NCBI GenBank assembly: GCA_017467335.1
Contig: JAFTSJ010000006.1
Span: 9,847 to 73,846 of the forward strand
Source of the DNA: Alphaproteobacteria bacterium
GTDB taxonomy: Bacteria; Pseudomonadota; Alphaproteobacteria; CAAHEQ01; UBA3637
DNA: 64,000 nt
Reading direction: 5' to 3'
The first letter of the stretch is position 1. The number at the start of each line of letters is the position of its first letter. The translations under genes were made by a program, and so were the position numbers. The notes beneath the pieces are model-generated. The model saw nothing but the letters and a program-made list of their open reading frames with translations. It ran no database searches and was not told the DNA's origin. Shown here piece by piece: positions 38,990 to 51,498 of the stretch.

Positions 38990-40075
38990 TTATTGATAGC
39001 AACGGATTCCGTGTGCACGACCTTGGAGTAGCTTTTTGATATGATTTGAAGCCAACTTTTGCGTTCTTGTATAGGTTCTAAGTGCCATACGTCTTTTCTT
39101 CCGATAAATCAAGTCTTTTTTAATCTCGGAAATAACTCGTTGAGTTAATCTTTTTAAAATTTCTTCTGTTTTTGGCGTGAGTGCTTCACTCTCACGCATT
39201 TCTCTTAACATCTGATACAAAGAAAAAATCATTTTTCTTTTTTCCTTGGATGATAAATTTGATACATTGAAAGCTACTCTTTTACAAACCGGCTCTATCA
39301 ACGTTCTAGCCAAAAATTTAAATTTCCTTTTCTTATAAGGTTCTTTTGAATATTGTTCTGTCAAATCACTCAATAAAGTGTGATAACTTTTCAAATGTTT
39401 TTCGGTAAACTTTTGATTCGTTGTTGATGCCTCATTCATACGATATTTGTAAAATGGAATAGGTAATAATGTTGATAACACATTATCTTTTAAAATCGTC
39501 AATAACAACTGTGTGTCTTCATAGTACATACCCGGTTTAAAGCGAAGTTCTTTAAATATACTTCTATGGAACAACATTGTTGTTACAACACGAGAAATTC
39601 TGGGTTTGGCATCCTGTGCTGTATATGCCATCAAATCAGCACGAACCAAACTCGGTAATTTTTTGATGTCGTATGTTTCAAATTTTCTATCTTTAAAATC
39701 ACCTGGTTTTTCCTCTTTTTCATAAAGAAAGGCTGTTATTGGTGTTTTGTTTTTCAAAGCATGATGATGAACAGCTTCAAGAGTTTGAGGATGAATAAAA
39801 TCATCAGAATCTAAAAAGAAAATATATTTTCCCTTGGCAAGATCTAATCCCTTATTTCTTGCAGCTGATTGCCCTTGGTTTTCTTGAGAAAAAACTTTTA
39901 TTCTCTTGTCAATTTTTGCATAGGTATTTAAAATATCCAATGAGGCATCTTGTGAACCATCATTCACACAAATAACCTCTAGGTTTTTATGTGTTTGATC
40001 TAATACGCTATCCAAGCACTCTGTTAAAAAATCTTCTGCATTATAAACAGGAATAATTACTGAAATTTTTGCCAT
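38990..40075 (-). CDS. family-2 glycosyltransferase
   Basis: ISVIIPVYNAEDFLTECLDSVLDQTHKNLEVICVNDGSQD…FLDSDDF. Confidence 0.8.
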   Translation of the reverse strand: MAKISVIIPVYNAEDFLTECLDSVLDQTHKNLEVICVNDGSQDASLDILNTYAKIDKRIKVFSQENQGQSAARNKGLDLAKGKYIFFLDSDDFIHPQTLEAVHHHALKNKTPITAFLYEKEEKPGDFKDRKFETYDIKKLPSLVRADLMAYTAQDAKPRISRVVTTMLFHRSIFKELRFKPGMYYEDTQLLLTILKDNVLSTLLPIPFYKYRMNEASTTNQKFTEKHLKSYHTLLSDLTEQYSKEPYKKRKFKFLARTLIEPVCKRVAFNVSNLSSKEKRKMIFSLYQMLREMRESEALTPKTEEILKRLTQRVISEIKKDLIYRKKRRMALRTYTRTQKLASNHIKKLLQGRAHGIRCYQ

Positions 40076-40230
40076 ACCGAACTCCTTTAAACGTCACTAT
40101 AATAAAATACACAACAAAAAAATATTTGTCAATATTTTTTTATTATTTTTCCTAAATAAAATAAAAATTAAGAATTTAAATCAATTATCAGCCCAAAAAT
40201 ACATCGCTAAATATTTGAAAAATAATAAAA

Positions 40231-40295
40231 ACCAACCTCAAAACATAGAGTTGTCGTTTTGGTACTGCGTCCTTAACAAATACCGAATCAATTAT
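40231..40295. repeat. intergenic repeat family R, copy R1 (partial)
   Basis: …gttgtcgTTTTGGTACtgcgtccTTAACaAATACCGAatCAATtAT… matches the core of R2 and R3. It is preceded by CCAACCTC, the reverse complement of the R2/R4 end GAGGTTGG. Confidence 0.6.
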
Positions 40296-40375
40296 ATATT
40301 CAAAGTTAATAATATTTAACTTTATTTCTTGCAACGATATATTTTTAATGATATTTTGATTTTAGGAGAAAAAAC

Positions 40376-40774
40376 ATGAATTATACAATAAAAATTGGCA
40401 ACGATATTAACACAAAGGATATAGATGATTTTTATCCGTTAATTGATTTTAATATATATAAATCAAAAGACTGGGAAAAAATCCGTCAAAGGTCAACTTT
40501 TATTGTTCAAATACAAGATAAAGGGAAAACCATCGGATGGGGACGATGCGTAGATGATGGCACATTTTGCATGATTTATGATATGGCAGTTCATCCCAAT
40601 TACCAAAGACAAGGCATTGGCAAAACAATCATGGATGAAATTAAAAAATACGTCGCACAAAATGATTTTTATTCAGTTAGTTTGTTCTATAATCCATATA
40701 ATCCAACGGTAAAAGAATTTTATCAAAAGTGTGGTTTTTATGAATTACCAATTGCCATGAGATTAAAAAAATAA
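40376..40774 (+). CDS. GNAT-family N-acetyltransferase
   Basis: Acetyl-CoA motif A: VHPNYQRQGIGKTIMDEI. 132 aa. Confidence 0.8.
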   Translation: MNYTIKIGNDINTKDIDDFYPLIDFNIYKSKDWEKIRQRSTFIVQIQDKGKTIGWGRCVDDGTFCMIYDMAVHPNYQRQGIGKTIMDEIKKYVAQNDFYSVSLFYNPYNPTVKEFYQKCGFYELPIAMRLKK

Positions 40775-40828
40775 TCCTCCTAAAAAATAAAGGAAAATCA
40801 GTAATTTTGATTTTTTGCACTACAAATC

Positions 40829-40853
40829 TTTCGAATACCGAACCAATAATCTC
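40829..40853. repeat. repeat family R, copy R5 (short core fragment)
   Basis: tTCGAATACCGAaCCAATAATctc. Confidence 0.45.
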
Positions 40854-41162
40854 AAAAAAAATGGTCTTTATGGCGTATTGTCATAGCAAAATCAATATAT
40901 AATTTTTTAACTTAAATCGGATAAATAATAGATTGTTTCATAAGAATATTCATCCCAGAAGTTCGATAAATGAGAAAAATGAGCCCTTTTAGAAAAGGCA
41001 ATTATCGAAGCGGCACAAACGCTTGAAATACAATTAAAAAACAAAGTGTTTTTTAATAATGTTACCATTTTTTGTATTTTACATAAACAGGAATCTACTC
41101 TTGACAATTATCCAAATAATCGCTCAAATCATCCGTTTGTCACAAAGTCTTCTTAAATTCAT

Positions 41163-41546
41163 TTACATTCTAAAAGGTTTACATCTTTTAGGAATATACC
41201 AAATATTTTCATCAAGTTTTTCACAATTATCCAATGAAAAATCAACATCACAATATCCACCCTCTATTTTTTCGGGCAGATCATTATTTAAACAAATTTC
41301 ATGCCACATTTCATCAGATATTTCTTTTGTTTTTTTATAAGAATCAGTTTGGGCTTTCGTCATACGAATACATCCATTTATTTTACTGATTGTTAAACAA
41401 TCACTGCGGCATCTTTTATTCTTTTCATCCCATACTTGCCCCAAATCATAGCATGAAGAAACAACAAAATACTCATACCCACATCTAAAAAGTGCACATA
41501 ATAATAAAATTAACACCACAAAGAAATATTTATTTTTTTTCATCAC
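41163..41546 (-). CDS. small secreted cysteine-rich protein (127 aa)
   Basis: Signal/TM N-terminus and 10 Cys. ATGA overlap with the upstream SAA-like gene. No motif recognised. Confidence 0.5.
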   Translation of the reverse strand: MMKKNKYFFVVLILLLCALFRCGYEYFVVSSCYDLGQVWDEKNKRCRSDCLTISKINGCIRMTKAQTDSYKKTKEISDEMWHEICLNNDLPEKIEGGYCDVDFSLDNCEKLDENIWYIPKRCKPFRM

Positions 41547-42226
41547 ATACCCCTTTTTAGATTACCAATATTTTTAGGGAATTTATTTAAATCTTTTGGT
41601 CTATAATCAGCACAGGCATCTTTTGCATTTTTATATGCACCGGATAATCCTTTTAAGATACCAACTTCATTAACTTTTTTATCATGCATTTTATCTTTTA
41701 AAGCTTCTTCTTTTGATAAGCCTTTATTCCATATATTACGATAAAAGTCAATATCTTCTTTTATATCTCCCAATAATTTTGCTGTTTTAGCTCCGTATAA
41801 CCCCCTATCAGACGCATTGTAATTTGCTTTACAATGATGATAATCATCTAACCCAATATAATTATGTTCTTTCATTTTAAAATATTCACTCCCCATATCC
41901 ATAATAGCTCCAAAAATTTGAGATATTGGATTTGATGTATTTGTTTTTTTTAAATCCTTAATATTTTTAGAGATATTTGAATTTCCAAAACCATAGTTAT
42001 TCTCTGACGATCTTCCCCAAAAATTGGTGCCATACTGCGTATAAGAATCATTTAAACCTATTGAATCTTCTTGCGCCATTAATTCATTTTCTTTTTCATC
42101 TCTTGCAAATTGATATTCAAGTTCGTCTCTTGTTGAAAAACCTGAATGATCGACACCGTATGAATCAATTTGATTTTGAAACATTTGATACCCTAACGGA
42201 GATTTTAATTTTTTGTAAAGTGGCAT
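41543..42226 (-). CDS. serum-amyloid-A (SAA)-like domain protein
   Basis: …EHNYIGLDDYHHCKANYNASDRGLYGAKTAKLLGDIKEDIDFYRNIW… aligns with vertebrate SAA …[44 protein letters not shown]… (recalled sequence). Later …VNEVG…YRP… aligns with …ANEWG…FRP…. Confidence 0.65.
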   Translation of the reverse strand: MPLYKKLKSPLGYQMFQNQIDSYGVDHSGFSTRDELEYQFARDEKENELMAQEDSIGLNDSYTQYGTNFWGRSSENNYGFGNSNISKNIKDLKKTNTSNPISQIFGAIMDMGSEYFKMKEHNYIGLDDYHHCKANYNASDRGLYGAKTAKLLGDIKEDIDFYRNIWNKGLSKEEALKDKMHDKKVNEVGILKGLSGAYKNAKDACADYRPKDLNKFPKNIGNLKRGM

Positions 42227-42351
42227 TGGTTATCCTTTCAGTTAAATTTCATTACATATAAAAAATATAACAAATTTTTCTTTCACATAACATCAGCCAT
42301 AACAGGCAAAAAAAAGCTTTTACTAGCAAAAGCTTTTTATTTTTTTTAATT

Positions 42352-42528
42352 ACAAATAAAAAAACAACTCCCGAAATGGGAGTTGTATGTTTTGGGACAG
42401 CACGCTTAGCGAATGCCGAGCCAATTATTACAAAGAAATTGATAATTTGTATCGTTTAATTGAAAGCCTTTCCTTTCAATCACAACTTGAACAAGTCATC
42501 TAAACCTGCCCTTAGGGCTGGAGGTTGG
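42352..42528. repeat. repeat family R, copy R2 (full length, about 177 bp)
   Basis: Hairpin aaCAACTCCCgaaatGGGAGTTGt, then the core TTTTGGgACAGCaCGCTTAgCGAATgCCGAGCCAATtAT, then a 100 bp extension shared with R4 containing ATTGAAAGcctttcCTTTCAAT and AACCTGCCCttaGGGCtGGAGGTT hairpins. Confidence 0.85.
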
Positions 42529-42598
42529 TTTTAACTTTTTTGATTGCTTTACATTAACGATTATGATATATTTTTTTATATTGATCAACGAGGAATTT

Positions 42599-43783
42599 AT
42601 GATACGCAGAAACATCCTATTATTTAAAATAACACAATTTTTTGGTGGATTGTGGTTTTTGGCGCCATTGGCTATTGTTTATTTTGAAACAATAACACAA
42701 TCATATGCTGTGGCCATGTCTGTTTTTGCCGTTTCATCACTTTCTACTACATTTATGGAAATTCCCGCCGGTTTATTTTCTGACAAAATAGGTCGGCGAA
42801 AAACATTATTATTTTCTCCATTACTTATTTGTTTGGCTTTTTTATTATGGGCATTGGCAGGAAATTTTCACTGTTCGTCTTTATTATTCATCGGGGCTTT
42901 TTTATACGGAACCGCCGATGCTGTTAGGTCTGGCACAGATGAAGCTTTAATCTATGAAACAATGGAAGAATTGGGCGAACAAGAAAATTTTAAAATCCAA
43001 TATGCAAAAAGTCGTGGTTGGGGACAAACAGGTGCAACTGTTAGTGCTATTCTTGCAGCTTTAATTTCATACTACTTCTCACTACAAATATTAGCTTGGA
43101 CATCCATTATTCCGTTTATTGCACAATTAATCGCTGTATGGCTTTATATTGAACCAAAACGCTCACAAAAACCTAAAAAAGCAAATTCTTGGATCAATTT
43201 TCAACTGGCTTTCAAGAAATTATGGCAAAATCGGAAATTACGTTTTTATACAAGTATTGAAATGATTGATACTGCTTTTGGAACTGCTACCTTTCGCTTT
43301 GAAGGTGCATATTATCAAACATTGATAACACAATGGGGCGTAAATATCGTCCGTTTTTCAAAACATATTTTAGGAATAATCGGCTTTTTTATTGTTCCAT
43401 ATTTTCGTAAAATTAATATCGTTAAACTGTTTTTTGGTTCAATGATTGGAAACGCTTTTGTCAGATTGATTGGAGTAATTTTAAACAACACCTTTGCCCC
43501 TTTTATTATGGCAACCGTCAGTTTATTTTATGGTACAGAAAGAACAAGTTGTGCCAATATCATGCAAAATGAATTTTCACCCGAACAACGTGCAACAATG
43601 AAATCCATTATTTCATGCCTATCCAGTATTTTTGCAGCATTTGTACTTATCTTAATGGGATGGATTGCTGATATTTATGGTGCCAGAACAGCTATTTTAA
43701 TAGCAATTTTAGTAAAGATTGCTGTCATTATCTGCTCTCTCATTATTTTAAATAAAAAAAAGTTCGATAAATTGGAAAATTAA
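42599..43783 (+). CDS. MFS transporter
   Basis: About 12 TM helices. MFS loop motif GLFSDKIGRRKT between TM2 and TM3. Start moved to the ATG after GAGGA. Confidence 0.75.
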   Translation: MIRRNILLFKITQFFGGLWFLAPLAIVYFETITQSYAVAMSVFAVSSLSTTFMEIPAGLFSDKIGRRKTLLFSPLLICLAFLLWALAGNFHCSSLLFIGAFLYGTADAVRSGTDEALIYETMEELGEQENFKIQYAKSRGWGQTGATVSAILAALISYYFSLQILAWTSIIPFIAQLIAVWLYIEPKRSQKPKKANSWINFQLAFKKLWQNRKLRFYTSIEMIDTAFGTATFRFEGAYYQTLITQWGVNIVRFSKHILGIIGFFIVPYFRKINIVKLFFGSMIGNAFVRLIGVILNNTFAPFIMATVSLFYGTERTSCANIMQNEFSPEQRATMKSIISCLSSIFAAFVLILMGWIADIYGARTAILIAILVKIAVIICSLIILNKKKFDKLEN

Positions 43784-43830
43784 ACCCATCAAAATCGAGC
43801 TATTATCGAACCAGCATAAATGTTTGAAAT

Positions 43831-43911
43831 ACAAATAAAAAACAACTCCCGAAGTGGAAGCTGTATGTTTTGGTACAGCGTGCTTAACGAATACCGAGCC
43901 AATAATACAAA
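43831..43911. repeat. repeat family R, copy R3 (hairpin + core, no extension)
   Basis: acaaataaaaaaCAACTCCCgaagtGGaAGcTGtatgTTTTGGTACAGCGTGCTTAACGAATACCGAGCCAATAAT. Confidence 0.8.
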
Positions 43912-44004
43912 TGAATTAATAAAAGATATAATACAAATTAAAAATTTCTATTTAAAATAAATATTTATATTGATTTTTCATTTAATTTATGCATAATGAT
44001 ACAT

Positions 44005-44160
44005 TAGAGGCTATGATTCTGCGACACAGAGGAGCCAAAGGAAGAAAGAGCCAAAAGCTTGATTAGAACCTTTCGGGAAAGCCCGTAACAGCTTTAAATA
44101 GACAAAAGTAAGGTTGGCACCACGAACGAAATTCGTCCTTACATAAACCAAAAAAATAAA
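44005..44160 (+). promoter_or_regulatory. T-box-like leader upstream of aspS (candidate tRNA-sensing riboswitch); putative promoter at 43970-43997
   Basis: 44108-44142 reads GUAAGG-UUGGCACC-ACGAA-cgaaa-UUCGU-CCUUAC. That is an antiterminator-type fold with a UGGNACC bulge, matching the T-box consensus …GGGUGGNACCGCG…. N=C would pair with a G73 discriminator (Asp/Asn tRNAs). A GAC-A triplet lies at 44101-44104. I could not convincingly fold Stem I, and there is no U-tract terminator. Confidence 0.45.
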
Positions 44161-44169
44161 GGTGTAAAA

Positions 44170-45468
44170 ATGTTACAAAGAACATATATTAAAAATCTAA
44201 AAAAACATATTGGTGAAGAAGTTCTTATTAAGGGCAGCATTTATGCATTGCGTGCTCAAAGTAGTGTTTCATTCATCGTTTTAAGAGATATCACCGGTAC
44301 TGCTCAAGTTGTTATTGTAAAAAATTCAACACCGGATATCTTTAATTTAGTTAAATCATTGTCTTTAGAAACAGCAATTTCCGTTCAAGGTATTGTAAAG
44401 GCTGAAGACAAAGCGCCAAATCATGTCGAGATAGAAGCTTCCTCTATTTCAGTTATCTCCCCATCATTACCGGAATTGCCAATTCCTGTTTATGAAAAAG
44501 GATCTGAAACAACGTCAAATTTAAGGCATCAATACAGATTTTTAGATATCAGGAAACCCAAGAATGCTTTAATTATGAAATTATCCGGAGCATTTGATAG
44601 GTATTATCGTGAATTTTTAACACAGCAAGGTTTTATAGAAATTCACACACCGAAATTAATGCCTACTCCAAGCGAAAGCTCTTCAGATTTGTTTGAAGTC
44701 AATTATTTTGATAGAAAAGCTTATTTGGCTCAATCTCCTCAACTATATAAACAAATGGCTATTGCTGGTGGTTTAGAAAAGGTTTTTGAAGTCGGCCCCA
44801 TTTTCCGTGCCGAAAAATCCTTTACAACCAGACATGCAACCGAATGTACCTGTTATGACGTTGAAATGGCCTACATTAAGGACCATGAAGATATTATAAA
44901 GCTTGAAGAAAATATGATTGCATTCATTTTGACAAAAATGAAAGAAGAATATGGTGATGAAGTCAAACAATTATATGGTATTGACATTAAAGTACCAGAA
45001 ACACCATTCCCTCGCATTACAATGAAAGAAGCCAAGCAATTATTAGGAAGCTTTGATGATGGTTCTGACTTATCTTCCGAAGAAGAAAAAGCTTTGGGGG
45101 ATCATTTTGCAGCCAAAGGACATGATTTTGTTTTCTTAACAGATTTCCCCATTACGGCTCGCCCTTTTTATCATAAATATTATGAAGACAAGCCTTGTAC
45201 AAAATCTGCTGATTTAATCTACAAGGGAGTGGAAATTACAACCTTGGCTCAACGAGAAGAACGACCAGATGTTTTAGTAAAACAATTGATTGCAAAAGGA
45301 CTTGGAACAACTGATATTCAATGGTATTTAGACTTCTTTAAATATGGCGTTCCACCACATGGCGGTTGGGGGCTTGGTGGCTCTCGATTCTTAAAACAAA
45401 TGTTAAATTTAGAATCAATCCGTGATACGATGTTCTTATTCAGAGGGGTCAACCATCTTAACCCATAG
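44170..45468 (+). CDS. aspS: aspartyl-tRNA synthetase, short archaeal/eukaryal-type (type 2, no GAD insertion)
   Basis: 432 aa class IIb enzyme: an N-terminal OB fold, AQSPQLYKQ (the AspRS-type QSPQxxKQ), motif 2 FEVGPIFRAE, and motif 3 GGWGLGGSRF…FRG. Bacterial-type AspRS is about 590 aa. Confidence 0.75.
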   Translation: MLQRTYIKNLKKHIGEEVLIKGSIYALRAQSSVSFIVLRDITGTAQVVIVKNSTPDIFNLVKSLSLETAISVQGIVKAEDKAPNHVEIEASSISVISPSLPELPIPVYEKGSETTSNLRHQYRFLDIRKPKNALIMKLSGAFDRYYREFLTQQGFIEIHTPKLMPTPSESSSDLFEVNYFDRKAYLAQSPQLYKQMAIAGGLEKVFEVGPIFRAEKSFTTRHATECTCYDVEMAYIKDHEDIIKLEENMIAFILTKMKEEYGDEVKQLYGIDIKVPETPFPRITMKEAKQLLGSFDDGSDLSSEEEKALGDHFAAKGHDFVFLTDFPITARPFYHKYYEDKPCTKSADLIYKGVEITTLAQREERPDVLVKQLIAKGLGTTDIQWYLDFFKYGVPPHGGWGLGGSRFLKQMLNLESIRDTMFLFRGVNHLNP

Positions 45469-45492
45469 TGGAAAAATAATTGATTTTAAAGG

Positions 45493-45536
45493 TGGATGTC
45501 GCGATTTCAAACTTTTGAATACGGCATCCATTTTTT
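45493..45536 (+). terminator. rho-independent terminator of aspS
   Basis: TGGATGtcgcgaTTTCAAActTTTGAAtacggCATCCA followed by a T6 run. Confidence 0.65.
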
Positions 45537-45557
45537 AGATATACTTAACTCTACACA

Positions 45558-45671
45558 CTCCGAGCCAATAATATCAAAGAAATTGATAATTTGTATCGTT
45601 TAATTGAAAGCCTTTCCTTTCAATTACAACTTGAGCAAGTCAGCTAAACCTGCCCTAAGGGCCGGAGGTTG
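45558..45671. repeat. repeat family R, copy R4 (core 3' end + extension); direct repeat of 42416-42528
   Basis: About 113 bp with roughly 10 mismatches by eye to R2 (CCGAGCCAATAAT…AAAGAAATTGATAATTTGTATCGTTTAATTGAAAGCCTTTCCTTTCAAT…GGAGGTTG). Confidence 0.85.
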
Positions 45672-45842
45672 AATCGGATGAGAATTCAACCTTTACCTAT
45701 AAGGGGATAAAAGTTGGATGTAAATTTTATTTTGATTTTAAATCCAGTTCAAGTTGCGGCTTTTGTCTTAAAAATTTTCTTTTACATTGGCTACAATAAG
45801 GTAATCCTATCTTGCTATTGTATTAAAGAATTAGAGGCGGAT

Positions 45843-46454
45843 ATTGGCTACATCAGAGTTTCAACAGATAAACAAACATGTGAACATCAAAAATATGAAA
45901 TTAAACAATTCGCAAAAGCTCAAAAAGTCAAAATTACGCATTGGATTGAAGAAACTATTTCATCCGGAAAATCTTTAGATAAAAGAAAATTAGGAAAATT
46001 ACTTCAAAGTATGAAAGCCGGAGATATCCTGATTTCTTGTGAAATATCTCGTTTGGGGCGTTCCATGTTAGAGGTTATGCGTATATTGGAGACTTGTTTA
46101 AACAAAGAATGTCAGGTCTGGACGATAAAAGAAAATTTTAGACTAGGTGCAGATATTCAATCAAAAGTAATGGCGTTTGCGTTTGGTATATCAGCCGAAA
46201 TTGAACGCAGTTTAATATCACAACGGACAAAATCATCTTTGGCAAACATAAAAGCCAGCGGTAAAAGATTGGGGCGTCCATTCGCGGCAACAAGTAAAAA
46301 ATTAAAACTGTCAAAGAACTCAAAACGAGTCAAAGATTTATTGGATAAAGGCGTTTCAAAAGCTCAAATTGCTAAAGTTATGGGTGTTGGACGCACAACG
46401 CTTCGGCGTTTTATCTCGTCAAGGATGGACTTAAAATGTATTCACTCTCTTTAA
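45843..46454 (+). CDS. small serine recombinase (resolvase/invertase family)
   Basis: Catalytic N-terminus IGYIRVSTDKQ…, …ISRLGRS…, and a C-terminal HTH (GVSKAQIAKVMGVGRTTLRRFI). No ATG/GTG/TTG lies at the expected position. Coordinates assume an ATT start 5 nt after GAGGCGG. The only canonical in-frame start is TTG at 45714, which would add an implausible 43 aa extension. Confidence 0.7.
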   Translation: MGYIRVSTDKQTCEHQKYEIKQFAKAQKVKITHWIEETISSGKSLDKRKLGKLLQSMKAGDILISCEISRLGRSMLEVMRILETCLNKECQVWTIKENFRLGADIQSKVMAFAFGISAEIERSLISQRTKSSLANIKASGKRLGRPFAATSKKLKLSKNSKRVKDLLDKGVSKAQIAKVMGVGRTTLRRFISSRMDLKCIHSL

Positions 46455-46733
46455 CTTCTTGCCCTAAGAAGTGTTTATAGATTTATCCAAAGAATGGGAA
46501 GAAAACAAAATTGTTAATGTAATTTCCTAAAAGTTAAAGTTAACTATGCTGTCACTATGGAAAATTAGCCTGTTTTTTATCGGGGTGACAAAAAGTTTGT
46601 GTACATTCTATCCTAAACAAATTATAATATAAAAAAGTGTGATGCAAGTGTGATTCATTTATATATAAACGACAGGAAATAAAATGTTAAAAAGCTTAAA
46701 AATCAATACTTCTAATGAAAAATGGAACGAGCC

Positions 46734-46951
46734 CCTTCACCCGCTCCAAAATTTAAACGGTTACCATTTGGTGGCCGTTAAATTTTTGAGTGGGCAAGGA
46801 GTAAGGACCCGAGCAGAGGGTTCGGTGAACGAGGGCGATACTTTGCCTGAGTGAATGACGTTGTGCGTCAGCAAACGATCGTGCGGATTGCCCAGAGGGC
46901 AACCAAACGATAAATTGTGCGAAGTATGAGCCAATTTACAATCCCTTCACC
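46734..46951 (+). ncRNA. candidate structured non-coding RNA, class unknown
   Basis: Local G+C is about 50% against about 30% in the flanks. Hand-folded helices are: A 46734-46746/46788-46799; B 46749-46760/46775-46785; C 46805-46810/46818-46823; D 46824-46835/46943-46951; E 46838-46846/46919-46927; F 46856-46860/46866-46870; G 46888-46893/46897-46902. Three G:U pairs work only on the plus strand. Confidence 0.5.
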
Positions 46952-47004
46952 TGTCTTCCGAATTCTTTTATCGGCAAAAGATATACAATATTTTTACAAT
47001 CCGG

Positions 47005-47715
47005 TTATTTTCTAGAATAAGATAAATCTTTCTTACCACAACACACCAAAAGGTTATGATATCTTTTCTGATGAAAAAAATATTTATTATAACCATGCTT
47101 TTCCATATACATCAAAAGGTTATAATATCCTCTAGGTGTTGGAGTCGGCCATAAAACCCCTTCTTCCGGTAATGTTATGACTGTATCAACAACAGCACCT
47201 TGTTTCTTAGCCTCCTTTAAAGTAACTTGATTACTCATAACTTTCAAAAATAGGTCTTGTTCCATCATAATAATTGCAGGATTATCCCGAGGAACCATAT
47301 TTTCCGGCTTTAATAAATTTGACCGGTAAACAAAAACATAAGTATAATCTTTTCTACCAGGTTCGGATTTCTGATTTTTAAAGATAAATTCCGGCAAACC
47401 ATAAGGTGCATTTTTGATCTCGGTAAAAATAATGCTATTTTTAGTAATAATCGGAATAGATGTTTTTTTATTGGGAACAATTTCACAATCGCATCCGATT
47501 TCTTCCTTGCATTCTCTTGCAAGTGCTGAAAGCAATCCTTCCCCCTGTTCCACTTTACCGCCAATCCCACCAAAAGGTAATATAACTTGCCCAAAATCAT
47601 TTTTAATCCATCTTTTTTCAGGTTGAATAACAAAACAAAGTTTATCCCCAACCATAGCAATCATTGCAACAGATAAATCCGCTTTCGGATCGTCAATTAA
47701 TTCTTTAAAATTCAT
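47005..47715 (-). CDS. Nudix-family hydrolase
   Basis: Nudix box GKVEQGEGLLSALARECKEEIGC fits GX5EX7REUXEEXGU. It is the last gene of the three-gene operon, 2 nt after the upstream stop. Confidence 0.75.
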   Translation of the reverse strand: MNFKELIDDPKADLSVAMIAMVGDKLCFVIQPEKRWIKNDFGQVILPFGGIGGKVEQGEGLLSALARECKEEIGCDCEIVPNKKTSIPIITKNSIIFTEIKNAPYGLPEFIFKNQKSEPGRKDYTYVFVYRSNLLKPENMVPRDNPAIIMMEQDLFLKVMSNQVTLKEAKKQGAVVDTVITLPEEGVLWPTPTPRGYYNLLMYMEKHGYNKYFFHQKRYHNLLVCCGKKDLSYSRK

Positions 47716-47717
47716 TA

Positions 47718-48908
47718 TTAACTACCTTCGTTCAAATATGTTTTCTTTTGTAGCGGGCACCTTGGATCAATAGGTGTCTTTGTTGCTAATCTAACACTGG
47801 GGCACCCACCTTGACAAGCATTTACATATGCACAATGTGAACATTTGCTATTCTTGTTTTCAGTTTTGAAATATTCTCTTATTTTTTTAAAATTATAACC
47901 ATTTTTCCAAAGCATTTTAATATCTGTCCCCTTTAATGTTTCAGACGGGAAGTAAGAATCTATAAAACCGCATGGAGAAAAATGACAATTCCAATCAATA
48001 TATGCCGATCTGGTTCCGGCAGCGCAATCTAACTTTTGTCCAAAAACAGAATAATGAGCAGATGAATCATAGCAAAATACTTCTTCTAAATTGATAAAAG
48101 GATTATCATTCCTTAGTTTTCTAACAGCATCATAAAAAAACCAATATTTTTCATCCGGAAACAGAGTAGACAAATTAGAAACCGCTGCCCTTCCTTTAGG
48201 TTTTACACTTCTAATTCTAATTGGCACTTCCAGTTTCTTGCTGATTTTATCCAACTCAAATATCTGATCATATGATTCTTTTGTATTAATAATAGTTGAT
48301 CTTAATTCTGTTTTAATTCCGTTTTCTTTCAATGTCTTAACTGATGATATAGCAATTTTAAATAAACCAGGAAAACATCTTGTTTTATCATGGTATTGTT
48401 CTCCACCATCTAAACTAATAGATACTTTTACTCTGTTTTCCCTTAAAATATTTAATTTTTCTTGTGTTATCGTAGGGAATGTAATTCCAGAAGTACTTGT
48501 TGAAACTGATATCCCGGAATTATTGAATTTTTTAATTAAATCATAAAAATATGGATATACGAACGGTTCTCCGCCACCAATTTTGACCTTTAAAACACCA
48601 AAATCTATAATTTGATTTGAAAGCCTTTCTATTTCTGCTTCATCTATACCTTTTGTATTTGCGGAACCAGAATCAGATAAGCAAAATGGACATTTCAATG
48701 GACACTTTGTACTTGGATCAAGAAAAATTTTTATGGGAGCAGAAAAGGCATCAAGAACTTCTTCATTCCTAATAATTCTTGTTCTGGAATCAAGTTGGGG
48801 TATAGTTTCATTTTGTTTTGTTAATACCAATTCTCCATCCGTAGTAATTCCGATTCCACGAATACCTGCATAATTATACTCATATCTATATATTGCTAAT
48901 TGTTTCAT
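47718..48908 (-). CDS. radical SAM enzyme with C-terminal SPASM-type auxiliary cluster domain
   Basis: CPLKCPFC (CX3CX2C), GGGEP, and C-terminal CAAGT…CGF…CSHCAYVNACQGGCPSVRL…CPL. Confidence 0.8.
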   Translation of the reverse strand: MKQLAIYRYEYNYAGIRGIGITTDGELVLTKQNETIPQLDSRTRIIRNEEVLDAFSAPIKIFLDPSTKCPLKCPFCLSDSGSANTKGIDEAEIERLSNQIIDFGVLKVKIGGGEPFVYPYFYDLIKKFNNSGISVSTSTSGITFPTITQEKLNILRENRVKVSISLDGGEQYHDKTRCFPGLFKIAISSVKTLKENGIKTELRSTIINTKESYDQIFELDKISKKLEVPIRIRSVKPKGRAAVSNLSTLFPDEKYWFFYDAVRKLRNDNPFINLEEVFCYDSSAHYSVFGQKLDCAAGTRSAYIDWNCHFSPCGFIDSYFPSETLKGTDIKMLWKNGYNFKKIREYFKTENKNSKCSHCAYVNACQGGCPSVRLATKTPIDPRCPLQKKTYLNEGS

Positions 48909-48909
48909 T

Positions 48910-50949
48910 TTATATTGAGCCTGTCCTAGATTTTATTGAAAAAACAGGTATTCCAATTTGAGCGGAAAATTCATTAATATGTCTTCCGCTTAAATCAAAA
49001 CCACCTCTAGAAATCATCGCATTCGACACAAAAATAGAATCGATAGGCGTGTTTTCCTTTTTTAGTTTTAGATAATGATTAAGCAAATCATGAAAAACAA
49101 GTAATCCAGCAATCCCGACATTACCACCAAAATGTTCATTTTTAACAGAGGTTATTTTAAGATTTTTAACTTCTTCCTCCGGTTTTAAACAATTTAAAGC
49201 CTCTTGAAAAAACGGCTCAATAATCTCGCCTGTAAAAATATGCGGATAACTTAAATGATGTTTTTTTTGTAATTTCGAAATTTCTTTAAAAATTCCATAA
49301 TCCACATCATCATGCAAAAGTATTCCAAACAATCCAACCGCTCGTTCTCCTGCGTATCTGGGATCTTGTATTTGTTTTGAAGCATCAACAAATATTTGTT
49401 TGATTTTTCCGTCATTGTCTAAGATATCAAGTATAAATTTTGATTTTTCCCCTTCTTTCCATTTATCGGTTAAAATTAAATTAGCCTCAGTTCTGGAACG
49501 TATAGGCATATCATCAATTTTTAATATTATATCACCTTGTTTTATTCCACAAATATCTGCTAAAGAATTTGGAATAACATCTTCTATTTTCGCCTTTAAT
49601 CCTTTTCTATTGATTAATCCAACTGTTGTGATAATCGGCGTTTTAATTTCTTTTCTAAGAGAACAAATTGTATCATCAATTACGCGTAATTCTGAAACTG
49701 TTTGATATACCTGTGGATTATGATGTTTTGTTGCTGTTGGAAGTGCCACACGGATATAGGTATGCGGATTATACTTATCAGCATATCTGACTGTTTCTAT
49801 CACATCCTCAATCGGTATGATTTTGATTGCTGCCACTATAGAAACATCAAACTTTATCCCCAGATCATGCATTAACTTTATAGATGAAATAGCATTTTTA
49901 TGTTCTTCTATTTTTGCCCCCGGCATAATTTTCGAACGCCAATATACATTAGCACTATTCAATGAAACCTGAAATAAGACATTATCTTTTAATTTTTCAT
50001 CTTTTGCAACTTCTTGTAATAGTTCACGAGTTAAATTTCCGCCATGTGTGATAATTGGAATTTGCTGGTCAGGTGTTTTTTGAGCAATCAGTTTCAAAAT
50101 TTTTAAAAAGTCAGGATGTTCTGTCGGTTCCCAATCCATCATAGCAAACCGCAATATCGGATGTGCTCTGCCTGTTTGAGGATCATAATCTTCTAATAAT
50201 GCAGACATATCTTCTAATTTTCTATTCCAATTATAAGGATATTTTATTGTTGATAAATTCCTATCCACATAACAAAAACGACATCCTTGTTTACAATTAT
50301 TAAAAACAAAAGGAGTAATAGCCCTTTGAGCAGAACTCGCATTAACTCTAAAAAAATTCCTATCTATTATCTTTGCTTGGTATGACTGTAAGTCAAATTG
50401 CACATAATTACTCAAGTATCCGTATAATACTTGTAAAAAGTCAGCAGATACACCCTCTGTTTGTATTTCTTTTTCCTCTTTCAAGGTATTTCCGACATAT
50501 TGATTTTCTATAAATTTAATTGTTTTTGGTTCAATATTCTTTTGATTAATATCATATAATGATACCACATTCAAAAGAGTATTCATGACATCATTAAAAC
50601 TATATCTTTTATTTGTCGGTTTAAATGCAGGATATTTTTTTAATGTTTCTAAATAGTTTGAAATGACTGAAATTATAGGTAAATCTTGCGAAAACAGAAT
50701 TTCTGAATATGATTTTGAATCTTGATATGTCGGTATATCCGAACACACGGATATCACCTCGGCTTTATTAATGCTGATATAACTAGGAATTACTTGCTTT
50801 CGATTATTATCATACATTTTAACAAGTATAAGTAAGGAATTTATAAGTCTTCCTTCTGTATTTTTCTGTTCAATCGGATTAGAAAAGTCATTACCATTAA
50901 TGATATCCAAGTAACTGGAAAAATTAGAATCTTTTAATCGAATAGCCAT
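48910..50949 (-). CDS. radical SAM enzyme with internal PDZ domain and DUF512-like C-terminus, plus unknown roughly 200 aa N-domain
   Basis: Start set at MAIRLKD… (GGAGGAAG RBS). Contains CKQGCRFC (CX3CX2C). PDZ-like segment reads …SLADICGIKQGDIILKIDDMPIRSRTEANLIL…. C-terminus reads …HFGGNVGIAGLLVFHDL…ISRGGFDLSG…. Confidence 0.75.
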   Translation of the reverse strand: MAIRLKDSNFSSYLDIINGNDFSNPIEQKNTEGRLINSLLILVKMYDNNRKQVIPSYISINKAEVISVCSDIPTYQDSKSYSEILFSQDLPIISVISNYLETLKKYPAFKPTNKRYSFNDVMNTLLNVVSLYDINQKNIEPKTIKFIENQYVGNTLKEEKEIQTEGVSADFLQVLYGYLSNYVQFDLQSYQAKIIDRNFFRVNASSAQRAITPFVFNNCKQGCRFCYVDRNLSTIKYPYNWNRKLEDMSALLEDYDPQTGRAHPILRFAMMDWEPTEHPDFLKILKLIAQKTPDQQIPIITHGGNLTRELLQEVAKDEKLKDNVLFQVSLNSANVYWRSKIMPGAKIEEHKNAISSIKLMHDLGIKFDVSIVAAIKIIPIEDVIETVRYADKYNPHTYIRVALPTATKHHNPQVYQTVSELRVIDDTICSLRKEIKTPIITTVGLINRKGLKAKIEDVIPNSLADICGIKQGDIILKIDDMPIRSRTEANLILTDKWKEGEKSKFILDILDNDGKIKQIFVDASKQIQDPRYAGERAVGLFGILLHDDVDYGIFKEISKLQKKHHLSYPHIFTGEIIEPFFQEALNCLKPEEEVKNLKITSVKNEHFGGNVGIAGLLVFHDLLNHYLKLKKENTPIDSIFVSNAMISRGGFDLSGRHINEFSAQIGIPVFSIKSRTGSI

Positions 50950-50969
50950 ACTTCCTCCTTCTGTCAAGG

Positions 50970-50998
50970 ATTTTAATACAAACACAACAAAATGTCAA
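50970..50998 (-). promoter_or_regulatory. near-consensus sigma70 promoter of the radical-SAM operon
   Basis: On the minus strand TTGACA-17 nt-TAAAAT, about 20 nt upstream of the RBS. Confidence 0.6.
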
Positions 50999-51013: not shown

Positions 51014-51214
51014 TCATGTAGACACGTCATCAATTTTTAATATTATATCCTCTTGTCTTATTCCAAGAATATCTGCTAAAGAATTTTCACAACAACTTTT
51101 TTCACTTTTGTTTATGACTATCGTATACGCATTTTTTAATAAATATTTATTTGTTTCAAAAATGATTGTTCCAAAATCGTTTGTTTTTACAGTATCGGCA
51201 AAGATTCTTCTGTT
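51014..51214 (-). pseudogene. fragment of a paralogue of the PDZ/radical-SAM gene
   Basis: 51020-51085 is about 90% identical by eye to 49508-49573. It translates as …TIVINKSEKSCCENSLADILGIRQEDIILKIDDVST*, compared with the intact …NSLADICGIKQGDIILKIDDMP…. There is no start codon. Confidence 0.65.
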
Positions 51215-51231
51215 TTATTACACTTATTTAA

Positions 51232-51423
51232 AAAGGCATTTTATCAGATATAGCCTTAAATGCAAAAGGAATCTTCAAAAGTTCGATAAATGAAGAAAAA
51301 CACAAAATTTTAAAACTGATTTTATCGAACTCGGTGGTCGATGGAAAAAATCTTTATTTTTCAATAAATAAACCCTTCGATAAATTGCTTTTTTCGAAGG
51401 GTTGTAAGACTTGGTACCTCTAG
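51232..51423 (+). pseudogene. possible C-terminal remnant of a (large serine?) recombinase abutting tRNA-Leu
   Basis: Start-less open frame GILSDIALNAKGIFKSSINEEKHKILKLILSNSVVDGKNLYFSINKPFDKLLFSKGCKTWYL*. It resembles C-termini of 'recombinase family' proteins as I recall them. This is unverified, and it overlaps the tRNA terminator hairpin. Confidence 0.3.
51362..51403 (-). terminator. terminator hairpin downstream of tRNA-Leu
   Basis: AACCCTTCGA-12 nt-TCGAAGGGTT (10 bp stem), followed on the minus strand by TTTATTTATT. Confidence 0.55.
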
Positions 51424-51498
51424 CCGGACTTGAACCAGCATGATCTTGCGATCAACAGATTTTGAGTCTGTCGCGTCTACCAATTTCGCCATAGAGGC
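51412..51498 (-). tRNA. tRNA-Leu (anticodon CAA), class II with long variable arm
   Basis: GCCTCTATGGCGAAATTGGTAGACGCG-ACAGA-CTCAAAA-TCTGT-…GCTGGTTCAAGTCCGGC-TAGAGGT-A-CCA. The acceptor stem has G1:U72 instead of G:C. Confidence 0.85.

Follow-up and report, generated by a model that had tools for sequence, protein, structure and literature searches.

What would two radical S-adenosylmethionine (SAM) enzymes and a Nudix hydrolase do together when they are encoded in a single compact operon? This question is raised by positions 47,005 to 50,998 of a 64,000-nucleotide stretch of alphaproteobacterial DNA (contig JAFTSJ010000006.1 of assembly GCA_017467335.1; the whole stretch is hereafter called the window). 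An earlier note, made from the letters alone, had described three genes here, which we call g1, g2 and g3, as a candidate uncharacterised system. Our analysis identified g1 as a predicted B12-type radical SAM enzyme and found that the gene set recurs, with some of its parts fused, in other phyla, and we tentatively propose that the encoded proteins tailor a nucleotide-linked small molecule. The layout of the operon is just as the note had it, with three minus-strand genes separated by 1 and 2 nt behind a near-consensus promoter and a ribosome-binding site (RBS):

50970-50998, minus strand: sigma-70-type promoter, TTGACA-17-TAAAAT, 11/12 matches
50954-50958, minus strand: RBS GGAGG, 4 nt 5' of the g1 ATG
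48910-50949, minus strand: g1, 679 aa counted from the ATG
47718-48908, minus strand: g2, 396 aa
47005-47715, minus strand: g3, 236 aa
46723-46748, minus strand: terminator-like hairpin, ~260 nt 3' of g3, within a structured GC-rich stretch

The promoter is the sole strong promoter-like site that points into the operon. A longer open reading frame (ORF) of g1, beginning at a GTG at 50985, overlaps the -10 box of this promoter, and the homologues start at the ATG; the predicted start of g1 is the ATG rather than the GTG. The domain calls that had been made for the three genes also proved correct in Pfam searches, with the SPASM domain of g2 falling 0.6 bits under its cut-off. In g1, these searches placed Radical_SAM at residues 215-389 (46 bits; PF04055 cut-off 29.5), PDZ_6 at residues 455-488 (31 bits, over its cut-off) and DUF512 (PF04459) at residues 563-672 (38.2 bits vs a cut-off of 25). 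An AlphaFold (AF2) model of the protein has a predicted local distance difference test score (pLDDT) of 86 and a predicted template modelling score (pTM) of 0.86, and the secondary structure of this model, read by eye, gave the approximate limits of the core, PDZ and DUF512 domains:

50335-50949, minus strand: g1 N-terminal domain, residues 1-205, family-specific, fold not recognised
49630-50334, minus strand: g1 radical SAM core, residues ~206-440, with C219-x3-C223-x2-C226-Y227 and the GGE-like DWEPTEHP
49360-49629, minus strand: g1 internal PDZ, residues ~441-530, RseP/HtrA-like, with an invariant RSRTE at the start of helix alpha-2
48913-49359, minus strand: g1 DUF512 domain, predicted to bind cobalamin, residues ~531-679, with GGN-x3-AGLL

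The cluster motif CKQGCRFC (C219/C223/C226) is unchanged in an alignment of 15 g1 homologues, and g1 has DWEPT (within MDWEPTEHP) where g2 has GGGEP. In the GGN-x3-AGLL motif, G609, N610 and A614-L617 are invariant and G608 is nearly so. The motif includes the predicted lower-axial leucine, L616, which is invariant in 15/15 g1 sequences, as is Y227, the aromatic residue right after the third cluster cysteine. T573, a candidate for the Thr or Ser that would hydrogen-bond the dimethylbenzimidazole (DMB) tail of the cofactor, is invariant as well and lies 43 residues ahead of L616, equal to the T323-L366 spacing in csDUF512, a correspondence of spacing only and not of a residue-by-residue alignment. 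A profile built from the 15 homologues matched PDB entries 9cg2 (pfDUF512; E 7e-8) and 9cg1 (csDUF512) over the C-terminal region, and Foldseek with the g1 model returned 9cg2 first and 9cg1 second, with Mmp10 also among the matches. The g1 segment FGGNVGIAGLL aligns with FFGGNIGTAGLL of pfDUF512, which carries the lower-axial leucine L286. These two crystal structures identified DUF512 as an Mmp10-type cobalamin-binding domain, and all four DUF512 proteins assayed bind cobalamin, make methylcobalamin and S-adenosylhomocysteine from SAM, and cleave SAM to 5'-deoxyadenosine (Wang et al. 2024, PMC11659888). A 2025 review terms the DUF512 enzymes "class 2" cobalamin-dependent radical SAM enzymes, counts ~6000 sequences and lists their reactions as an open question (PMC13331322). 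Mmp10, a class-2 B12 radical SAM enzyme that methylates protein arginine (PMC11659888), is the only one with an assigned substrate (PMC13331322). We assign g1 to these class-2 (DUF512/Mmp10-type) enzymes on its predicted domains and motifs. Because DUF512 is a cobalamin-binding domain, g1 is probably a B12-dependent radical C-methyltransferase, methylation being the chemistry that we infer for it. The earlier note had called the DUF512-like tail correctly; what it had missed was the cobalamin-binding role of this domain, and hence that g1 is a predicted B12 enzyme.

Like csDUF512 (9cg1), pfDUF512 (9cg2) and Mmp10 (7qbs), g1 has a radical SAM core followed by a C-terminal 4-stranded cobalamin-binding domain, and it keeps the GGN...AGLL motif with its lower-axial leucine and the aromatic residue after the third cluster cysteine. 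However, its order of N-domain, radical SAM core, PDZ and cobalamin-binding domain differs from that of every solved member. None of these has the private 200-aa N-domain, and the PDZ of g1 lies between the radical SAM and cobalamin-binding domains, whereas that of csDUF512 is N-terminal and permuted and pfDUF512 and Mmp10 have none. The earlier note had already remarked that the PDZ follows the core and is not N-terminal, and the mapping to residues 441-530 bears this out; the cyanobacterial model TIGR03279, of the csDUF512 type with its N-terminal PDZ, scores 20.7 vs a cut-off of 574.7. In that group the PDZ completes a shortened radical SAM barrel, whereas the core of g1 is near-complete, and g1 has MDWEPTEHP instead of a DDD motif. 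The PDZ domain itself matches those of RseP and MucP in Foldseek (target-normalised TM score 0.7-0.8) and has an R-x-G-L loop with R448 and L451 invariant, as well as the invariant RSRTE in the binding helix. The N-domain of about 200 aa, in which the note had recognised no motif, remained without relatives of known fold: its isolated AF2 model (pLDDT 77) gave no PDB fold match in Foldseek (best E 0.79), and its profile found 9 representative clusters among 1.84 billion proteins, all of them g1-like or fragments. A beta3-alpha3 run at residues 43-104 had looked PqqD-like and was considered as a recognition element (RRE) of the kind found in systems for ribosomally synthesised and post-translationally modified peptides (RiPPs), but this candidate was dropped after the same Foldseek search gave nothing.

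The closest parallel to this architecture came from a cultured organism. A protein on pSJ05684b of Sinorhizobium sojae (NZ_CP023068.1, ~1,490,628-1,492,826) is collinear with g1 over the radical SAM, PDZ and cobalamin-binding domains (23% identity, E 3e-26) and keeps the C-x3-C-x2-C-Y, VS(I/L)NSAN and GGN motifs. Judging from this alignment, the internal-PDZ order exists outside the g1 clade. The S. sojae protein differs from g1 in having no g1-type N-domain and no g2, Nudix or PIG-L gene nearby. The genes after it encode two class-1 B12 radical SAM enzymes, an aldo-keto reductase, a SAM methyltransferase and a 2-oxoglutarate (2OG)-Fe(II) oxygenase, with an ISL3 transposase adjoining (locus L042, NZ_CP023068.1 1484474-1499790; comparison loci are given here by their L numbers), and this locus is an unannotated tailoring cluster on a chromid.

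The second enzyme, g2, matched Radical_SAM at 69 bits (cut-off 29.5) and SPASM (PF13186) at 20.9 bits vs a cut-off of 21.5, while the SPASM model TIGR04085 scores 38.3 vs a cut-off of 27 for the orthologue in L009. Its cluster cysteines C69/C73/C76 and GGGEP are invariant in 22 homologues, as are all of C295, C313, C356, C359, C365, C369 and C384, and g2 carries what we predict to be a full 7-Cys SPASM domain with two auxiliary Fe-S clusters. An N-terminal motif, R-x-E-Y-G-Y-A-G-I, is conserved as well and is specific to g2. The family is small, with ~38 clusters above 250 bits, then 4 at 161-211 and the mycofactocin maturases at ~97 bits, and on this basis we place g2 in a small separate family. 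Among solved structures, SuiB, SkfB, BlsE and PqqE come nearest to it. With MftC, PapB, PqqE, SuiB and SkfB it shares the radical SAM core plus 7-Cys SPASM arrangement, but it differs from MftC, with ~26% identity and a TIGR03962 score of 117.8 bits vs a cut-off of 265. The mycofactocin system also differs in its surroundings, since g2 has no MftA/MftB-like precursor or chaperone and no RRE and is fused or adjacent to Nudix. No mft-like neighbour occurs in any locus, apart from weak glycosyltransferase matches at window positions 38990-40075. In agreement with the view that g1 and g2 fall outside well-characterised families, all NCBIfam models score g1, g2 and g3 below their curated cut-offs. 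Homologues of g2 that stand alone (38-40% identity) were found in contigs resembling the Candidate Phyla Radiation (CPR), L017, L018 and L019, with metK on one side and a convergent SpoU-family methylase gene on the other; thioredoxin reductase and DsbA-like genes lie near them.

The third gene, g3, matched NUDIX in Pfam at 29.7 bits. Its Nudix box, G53-x5-E59-x7-R67-E68-x2-E71-E72, spans G53-C75 and is complete and invariant in 9 homologues, and g3 is a predicted Nudix pyrophosphohydrolase with a canonical box; beyond the box it resembles no characterised Nudix enzyme. Near its 3' end, at 47043-47129, the window's g3 contains a 66-nt in-frame tandem duplication, with 21-nt cores that are 90% identical and spaced 66 nt apart. 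This corresponds to a 22-residue insertion near the C-terminus that has no counterpart in the homologues of 203-214 aa. Long forms of g2 (573-636 aa) carry an extra C-terminal 230 aa homologous to g3 (hhalign probability 93%, E 2.5e-7, 134 columns). The extension weakly matches Pfam NUDIX in 8/9 members, and the glutamates of [RK]EIxEE are invariant in the fused domain. This homology indicates that g3 represents, as a separate protein, a domain that other lineages carry fused to g2, a Rosetta-stone link between the two. Orthologues of g3 at 69% identity were also found without g1 or g2 (L023 8868-10633 and L020 10001-10612), and the one in L023 directly follows a dCMP deaminase gene and thyX, which suggests a role for g3-type Nudix enzymes as pyrimidine (d)NTP pyrophosphatases.

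To what extent do these genes travel together? Relatives of g1 are few, forming 16 clusters among 5.8 billion proteins and occurring in 8/185,579 species genomes and at 6 loci in 241 million metagenome records. Their hosts are alphaproteobacterial and gammaproteobacterial metagenome-assembled genomes (MAGs), Roizmanbacteria, Saccharibacteria and one Bdellovibrionales MAG. None was found in phage records or viral contigs, and carriage by phages or plasmids was set aside, as the plasmid collection yielded a single distant chromid homologue. In every informative locus but one, from Bdellovibrionales, g1 and g2 are adjacent, and this holds for alphaproteobacterial, gammaproteobacterial, Roizmanbacteria and other CPR-like loci in which g1 is only 38-55% identical. 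The arrangements are as follows:

Form A, g1-g2-g3: the window and alphaproteobacterial MAGs, the latter adding a 343-348-aa protein without family match
Form B, g1, a g2 of 573-636 aa and a PIG-L/LmbE deacetylase: L003, L009, L010, L029, L030
Form B variant with PIG-L divergently upstream: L025/L026, L027
Form B variants that are incomplete: a decayed copy, L014, and L024, which stops at a contig edge
Form C, g1 alone: Bdellovibrionales

The Nudix-fused g2 forms are the CPR and gammaproteobacterial versions, and it is these that are joined by the PIG-L/LmbE deacetylase. This enzyme, closest to the bacillithiol enzyme BshB2, adjoins the g1-g2 pair in ~8 distinct loci and in two arrangements; separate Nudix genes are present in L009 and L024. 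Searches of Pfam, NCBIfam and the PDB gave no match for the 343-348-aa protein encoded after g3 in alphaproteobacterial loci, and the window has no such protein. The recurrence of this gene set in further phyla puts the association of the trio far beyond chance, and, judging from these sequence comparisons, the three genes form a rare module that is both conserved and horizontally mobile. The fusion of Nudix to g2, together with the adjacency of g1 and g2 at only 38-55% g1 identity, makes it very likely that the three predicted proteins share a function. Co-occurrence in other genomes, on which the idea of a system depended, is thus seen both in form A in the alphaproteobacterial MAGs and in the g2-Nudix fusions elsewhere.

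Some of these loci show features of their own. In L014 (3626-7408), g1 is split by a frameshift and g2 is fragmentary while PIG-L is intact, and in L012 (10001-12006) g1 changes frame at ~residue 290; each could be a decaying copy or an assembly error. In the CPR-like L024 (6093-7982), two MutT-like Nudix genes, a gene resembling S66 muramoyl-tetrapeptide carboxypeptidases and a GNAT gene lie directly upstream of g1, and no other locus hints at a connection to peptidoglycan precursors. In the Bdellovibrionales loci L001/L013, g1 is followed by glyQS and then by a separate cluster (L013 15131-19953) with a 366-aa radical SAM enzyme, two dCTP-deaminase-like (DCD) genes, a 363-aa class II protein resembling aminoacyl-tRNA synthetases (aaRS; catalytic core of the alanyl enzyme), an alpha/beta hydrolase and a Nudix gene. 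This cluster resembles a nucleotide or aminoacyl-nucleotide pathway and could not be tied to g1.

Our preferred explanation, to which we assign a probability of roughly 0.4, is that the module sequentially tailors a nucleotide-linked small molecule, which could be an NTP, a dNTP or an NDP-X such as one of the UDP-N-acetylhexosamine type. In the order that we envisage, g2 with its two SPASM clusters would first carry out a radical oxidation, a rearrangement or the formation of a C-C or C-X bond. Next, g1 would methylate an unactivated carbon via methylcobalamin, with its PDZ and private N-domain holding the substrate or a partner enzyme, and the Nudix enzyme g3 would then cut the pyrophosphate bond, releasing or activating the product. 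In the sister lineages, the PIG-L/LmbE deacetylase may add a final de-N-acetylation. That there is one common substrate, that it is nucleotide-linked and that the steps follow this order are all points that we infer. A nucleotide-linked substrate is favored because Nudix is fused to g2 and because PIG-L recurs, and the recurrence of an LmbE-type deacetylase in the sister lineages points to an N-acetylated moiety there, such as N-acetylhexosamine (HexNAc). The g3 orthologue beside the dCMP deaminase gene and thyX hints at pyrimidine (d)NTPs as the substrate.

There are precedents for such chemistry. OxsB, with OxsA, acts on dATP, and Fom3 acts on CMP-linked hydroxyethylphosphonate (HEP); both OxsB and Fom3 are B12 radical SAM enzymes with nucleotide-linked substrates, and BlsE and PolH/NikJ act on nucleosides. 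The gene list of the tun cluster includes the radical SAM enzyme TunB, the N-deacetylase TunE and the pyrophosphatases TunH/TunN (PMC6965331). By gene content only, the module follows the same logic as tun, OxsB/OxsA and Fom3, in which a radical SAM enzyme is combined with a nucleotide pyrophosphatase or phosphohydrolase and an N-deacetylase. It differs from these pathways in having no glycosyltransferase, epimerase or acyltransferase, and from OxsB and Fom3 in that g1 is predicted to be a class 2 and not a class 1 B12 enzyme. Its hosts are uncultured reduced-genome bacteria rather than actinomycetes.

A number of observations weigh against a nucleotide-linked small molecule. The window's version has no PIG-L, so the N-acetyl argument comes from other loci, and the Nudix box of the fused domain is degenerate in its first half and contains a 3-residue insertion, such that this domain could bind rather than hydrolyse. 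Homologues of g3 and distant homologues of g2 (~40% identity) also occur alone, and no glycosyltransferase, kinase or transporter completes a pathway within the module. Peptide C-termini are the usual ligands of PDZ domains. Among characterised proteins, g2 is closest to peptide maturases, and the sole class-2 enzyme with an assigned substrate, Mmp10, methylates a protein (PMC11659888, PMC13331322). The last three points also belong to the case for peptide or protein modification, which is possible but which we regard as doubtful. In such a system, the PDZ of g1 would dock a peptide or a housekeeping protein, encoded at another locus, by its C-terminus, g1 would C-methylate a side chain in the manner of Mmp10 with its protein arginine (PMC11659888), g2 would form cross-links or perform an MftC-like C-terminal oxidation, and the Nudix and PIG-L enzymes would be accessory, for example stripping a nucleotide or acetyl handle. 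The best curated-model and PDB matches of g2 agree with this, with MftC first at 118 bits and then PapB, PqqE, SuiB and SkfB, as do its full 7-Cys SPASM domain and the RseP/HtrA-like PDZ of g1, with its R-x-G-L loop and the invariant RSRTE of the binding helix. The distant collinear homologue in S. sojae likewise has several B12 radical SAM enzymes, a methyltransferase and a 2OG oxygenase as neighbours. However, a search for a precursor peptide by all-vs-all comparison of 818 small ORFs flanking nine loci, with inspection by eye, found none that is conserved, the sole cross-locus match being a fragment of a GIY-YIG nuclease, and a cis-encoded precursor was discarded as a candidate, though one could be encoded elsewhere. 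Nor does the locus resemble a RiPP cluster in other respects: the g1 N-domain showed no RRE fold, g2 has only ~55 residues ahead of its cluster motif, the operon contains no protease or leader peptidase and no exporter or other transporter, and all curated maturase models score far under their cut-offs. We know of no RiPP precedent for a covalent Nudix-SPASM fusion or for a recurrent LmbE-type deacetylase. The earlier note had offered a peptide-modifying or a nucleotide-modifying module without weighting the two; the Nudix-g2 fusion and the recurrent PIG-L tilt the choice toward a nucleotide-linked substrate, and neither a precursor nor an RRE was found. The two ideas would meet in a substrate that is both nucleotide-linked and peptide-bearing, such as one of the UDP-N-acetylmuramic acid (MurNAc)-peptide type or a peptidyl-nucleotide, which we think improbable. 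The PDZ would then grip the free peptide C-terminus, the Nudix domain would grip or cleave the nucleotide diphosphate, PIG-L would remove an N-acetyl group, and the two radical SAM enzymes would carry out a B12-dependent C-methylation and a radical-based cross-linking or oxidation.

The nucleotide branch of the earlier note had been tied to viperin-type enzymes and to defence, and this part fared less well. An anti-phage or conflict system would convert a cellular nucleotide, in the manner of viperin, to a modified, chain-terminating or toxic analogue, with Nudix processing or detoxifying it, and its chemistry would overlap that of nucleotide-linked tailoring, so that only the biological role differs. 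The distribution of the module is patchy, its locus in the window is an accessory one by a serine recombinase gene and a tRNA gene and is absent at the same site of a related species, the CPR-like locus L025 directly adjoins a type I restriction-modification system, and PADLOC returned weak matches to pVip and to the Nudix candidate PDC-S07. But these matches do not extend beyond the Nudix box and the generic core of radical SAM enzymes (pVip 25-40 bits), and the NCBIfam viperin model NF038283 scores 18.2 bits vs a cut-off of 180 with g1. The restriction-modification system of L025 aside, no other defence neighbours were noted in the loci examined, with the window's own neighbours not scanned against PADLOC; the phage and viral collections hold no relatives, the operon has no sensor or regulator, and its promoter is constitutive-looking. 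A defence role is unlikely on this evidence, and modification of tRNA or rRNA is quite unlikely. Many radical SAM enzymes modify RNA, such as RlmN/Cfr, MiaB and TYW1, and here g1 and g2 would alter an RNA nucleoside while the target of Nudix would be the 5' end of an RNA or a nucleotide cofactor. The position of the stand-alone CPR g2 homologues between metK and a SpoU methylase gene is consistent with this, as is the presence of the module in reduced genomes, whose retained genes are often informational. Against it, no RNA-binding domain was recognised and the N-domain has no significant fold match, PIG-L and PDZ would be given no obvious role, and the module is accessory and extremely rare, unlike housekeeping RNA modification. 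That the three genes are unrelated neighbours would fit the solitary g3 and distant g2 homologues, but it is highly improbable in view of the gaps of 1-2 nt behind a single promoter, the g1-g2 adjacency kept across phyla at ~40% identity and the physical fusion of a g3-like domain to g2 in other lineages.

The notion that no system with this trio has been described agrees with our searches of the literature on DUF512 and on radical SAM, Nudix and SPASM combinations, in which no title or abstract pointed to a description of it. Within the literature searched at this level, the architecture of g1, the SPASM::Nudix fusion and the g1/g2/Nudix(/PIG-L) module as a whole appear to be undescribed. Every catalytic domain falls in a known superfamily, and this is not a new kind of biology. 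The value of the module lies in giving a DUF512 enzyme informative conserved partners, namely a SPASM enzyme, Nudix-fused in some lineages, and an LmbE-type deacetylase, which leave nucleotides, NDP-N-acetyl-sugars and peptidyl-nucleotides as a short list of substrates to try. It also places a predicted cobalamin-dependent enzyme in CPR and in low-GC, host-associated-looking bacteria, which to our knowledge are not expected to make B12. The family is tiny and confined to uncultured organisms. If the substrate were indeed a nucleotide-linked peptide, it would be the first substrate class for a bacterial class-2 B12 radical SAM enzyme and would represent new envelope-precursor or antimetabolite chemistry in CPR and endosymbiont-like bacteria.

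How did the operon come to lie where it does? The earlier note had judged the context to be accessory from a recombinase, paralogue debris and a tRNA, and all three were found:

45714-46454: Mpi-type serine invertase gene (272.1 bits vs a cut-off of 272)
51019-51086, minus strand: 68-nt relic of the g1 PDZ-coding segment, 88% identity, upstream of the promoter; context, not a working part
51412-51498: tRNA-Leu(CAA) gene

The operon sits between the invertase gene and the tRNA gene. In L037/L038, where the AspRS (aspartyl-tRNA synthetase) gene is near-identical but core genes are 64-75% identical, indicating a different species, the equivalent site has the tRNA-Leu gene and lacks both the invertase gene and the operon. 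The locus is accessory, and its GC content is not anomalous. The relic at 51019-51086 is a direct repeat of 49503-49570 and translates to ENSLADILGIRQEDIILKIDDVS followed by a stop; it was probably left behind either by a former copy of g1 or by recombination. The idea that the neighbouring invertase flips g1 in a programmed manner via the relic was considered and rejected, as the repeat is direct and not inverted; an apparent mention of DUF512 in a paper on inversion was in fact DUF5127.

Between g3 and the invertase gene, the stretch 46715-46960 (minus strand) has 46% GC vs ~33% locally and folds far better than shuffled sequence (z = -3.9), ending in the terminator-like hairpin. It gave only chance-level matches in Rfam and is not repeated in the rest of the window or in the comparison loci retrieved, and a riboswitch or known RNA was excluded as a candidate, with nothing at gathering score across the whole window.

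On the far side of the invertase gene, at 40200-45700, genes are parted by related repeats of 80-110 nt, giving the look of a cassette array that ends at the serine recombinase gene:

40208-40296: cassette repeat
40959-41044: cassette repeat
42344-42527: cassette repeat
43760-43922: cassette repeat
45560-45671: cassette repeat
51276-51300: short match to the repeats

A neighbouring 432-aa aaRS was considered as a self-resistance copy against an aaRS inhibitor and discarded, being a standard non-discriminating AspRS (453 bits vs a cut-off of 353). The major facilitator superfamily (MFS) and AspRS cassettes share 97-99% identity with their counterparts in L037/L038, where their order is swapped, and the exact AspRS protein is found on at least 23 contigs in several contexts. 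The region is possibly a system of mobile cassettes, one of them with an aaRS of housekeeping type.

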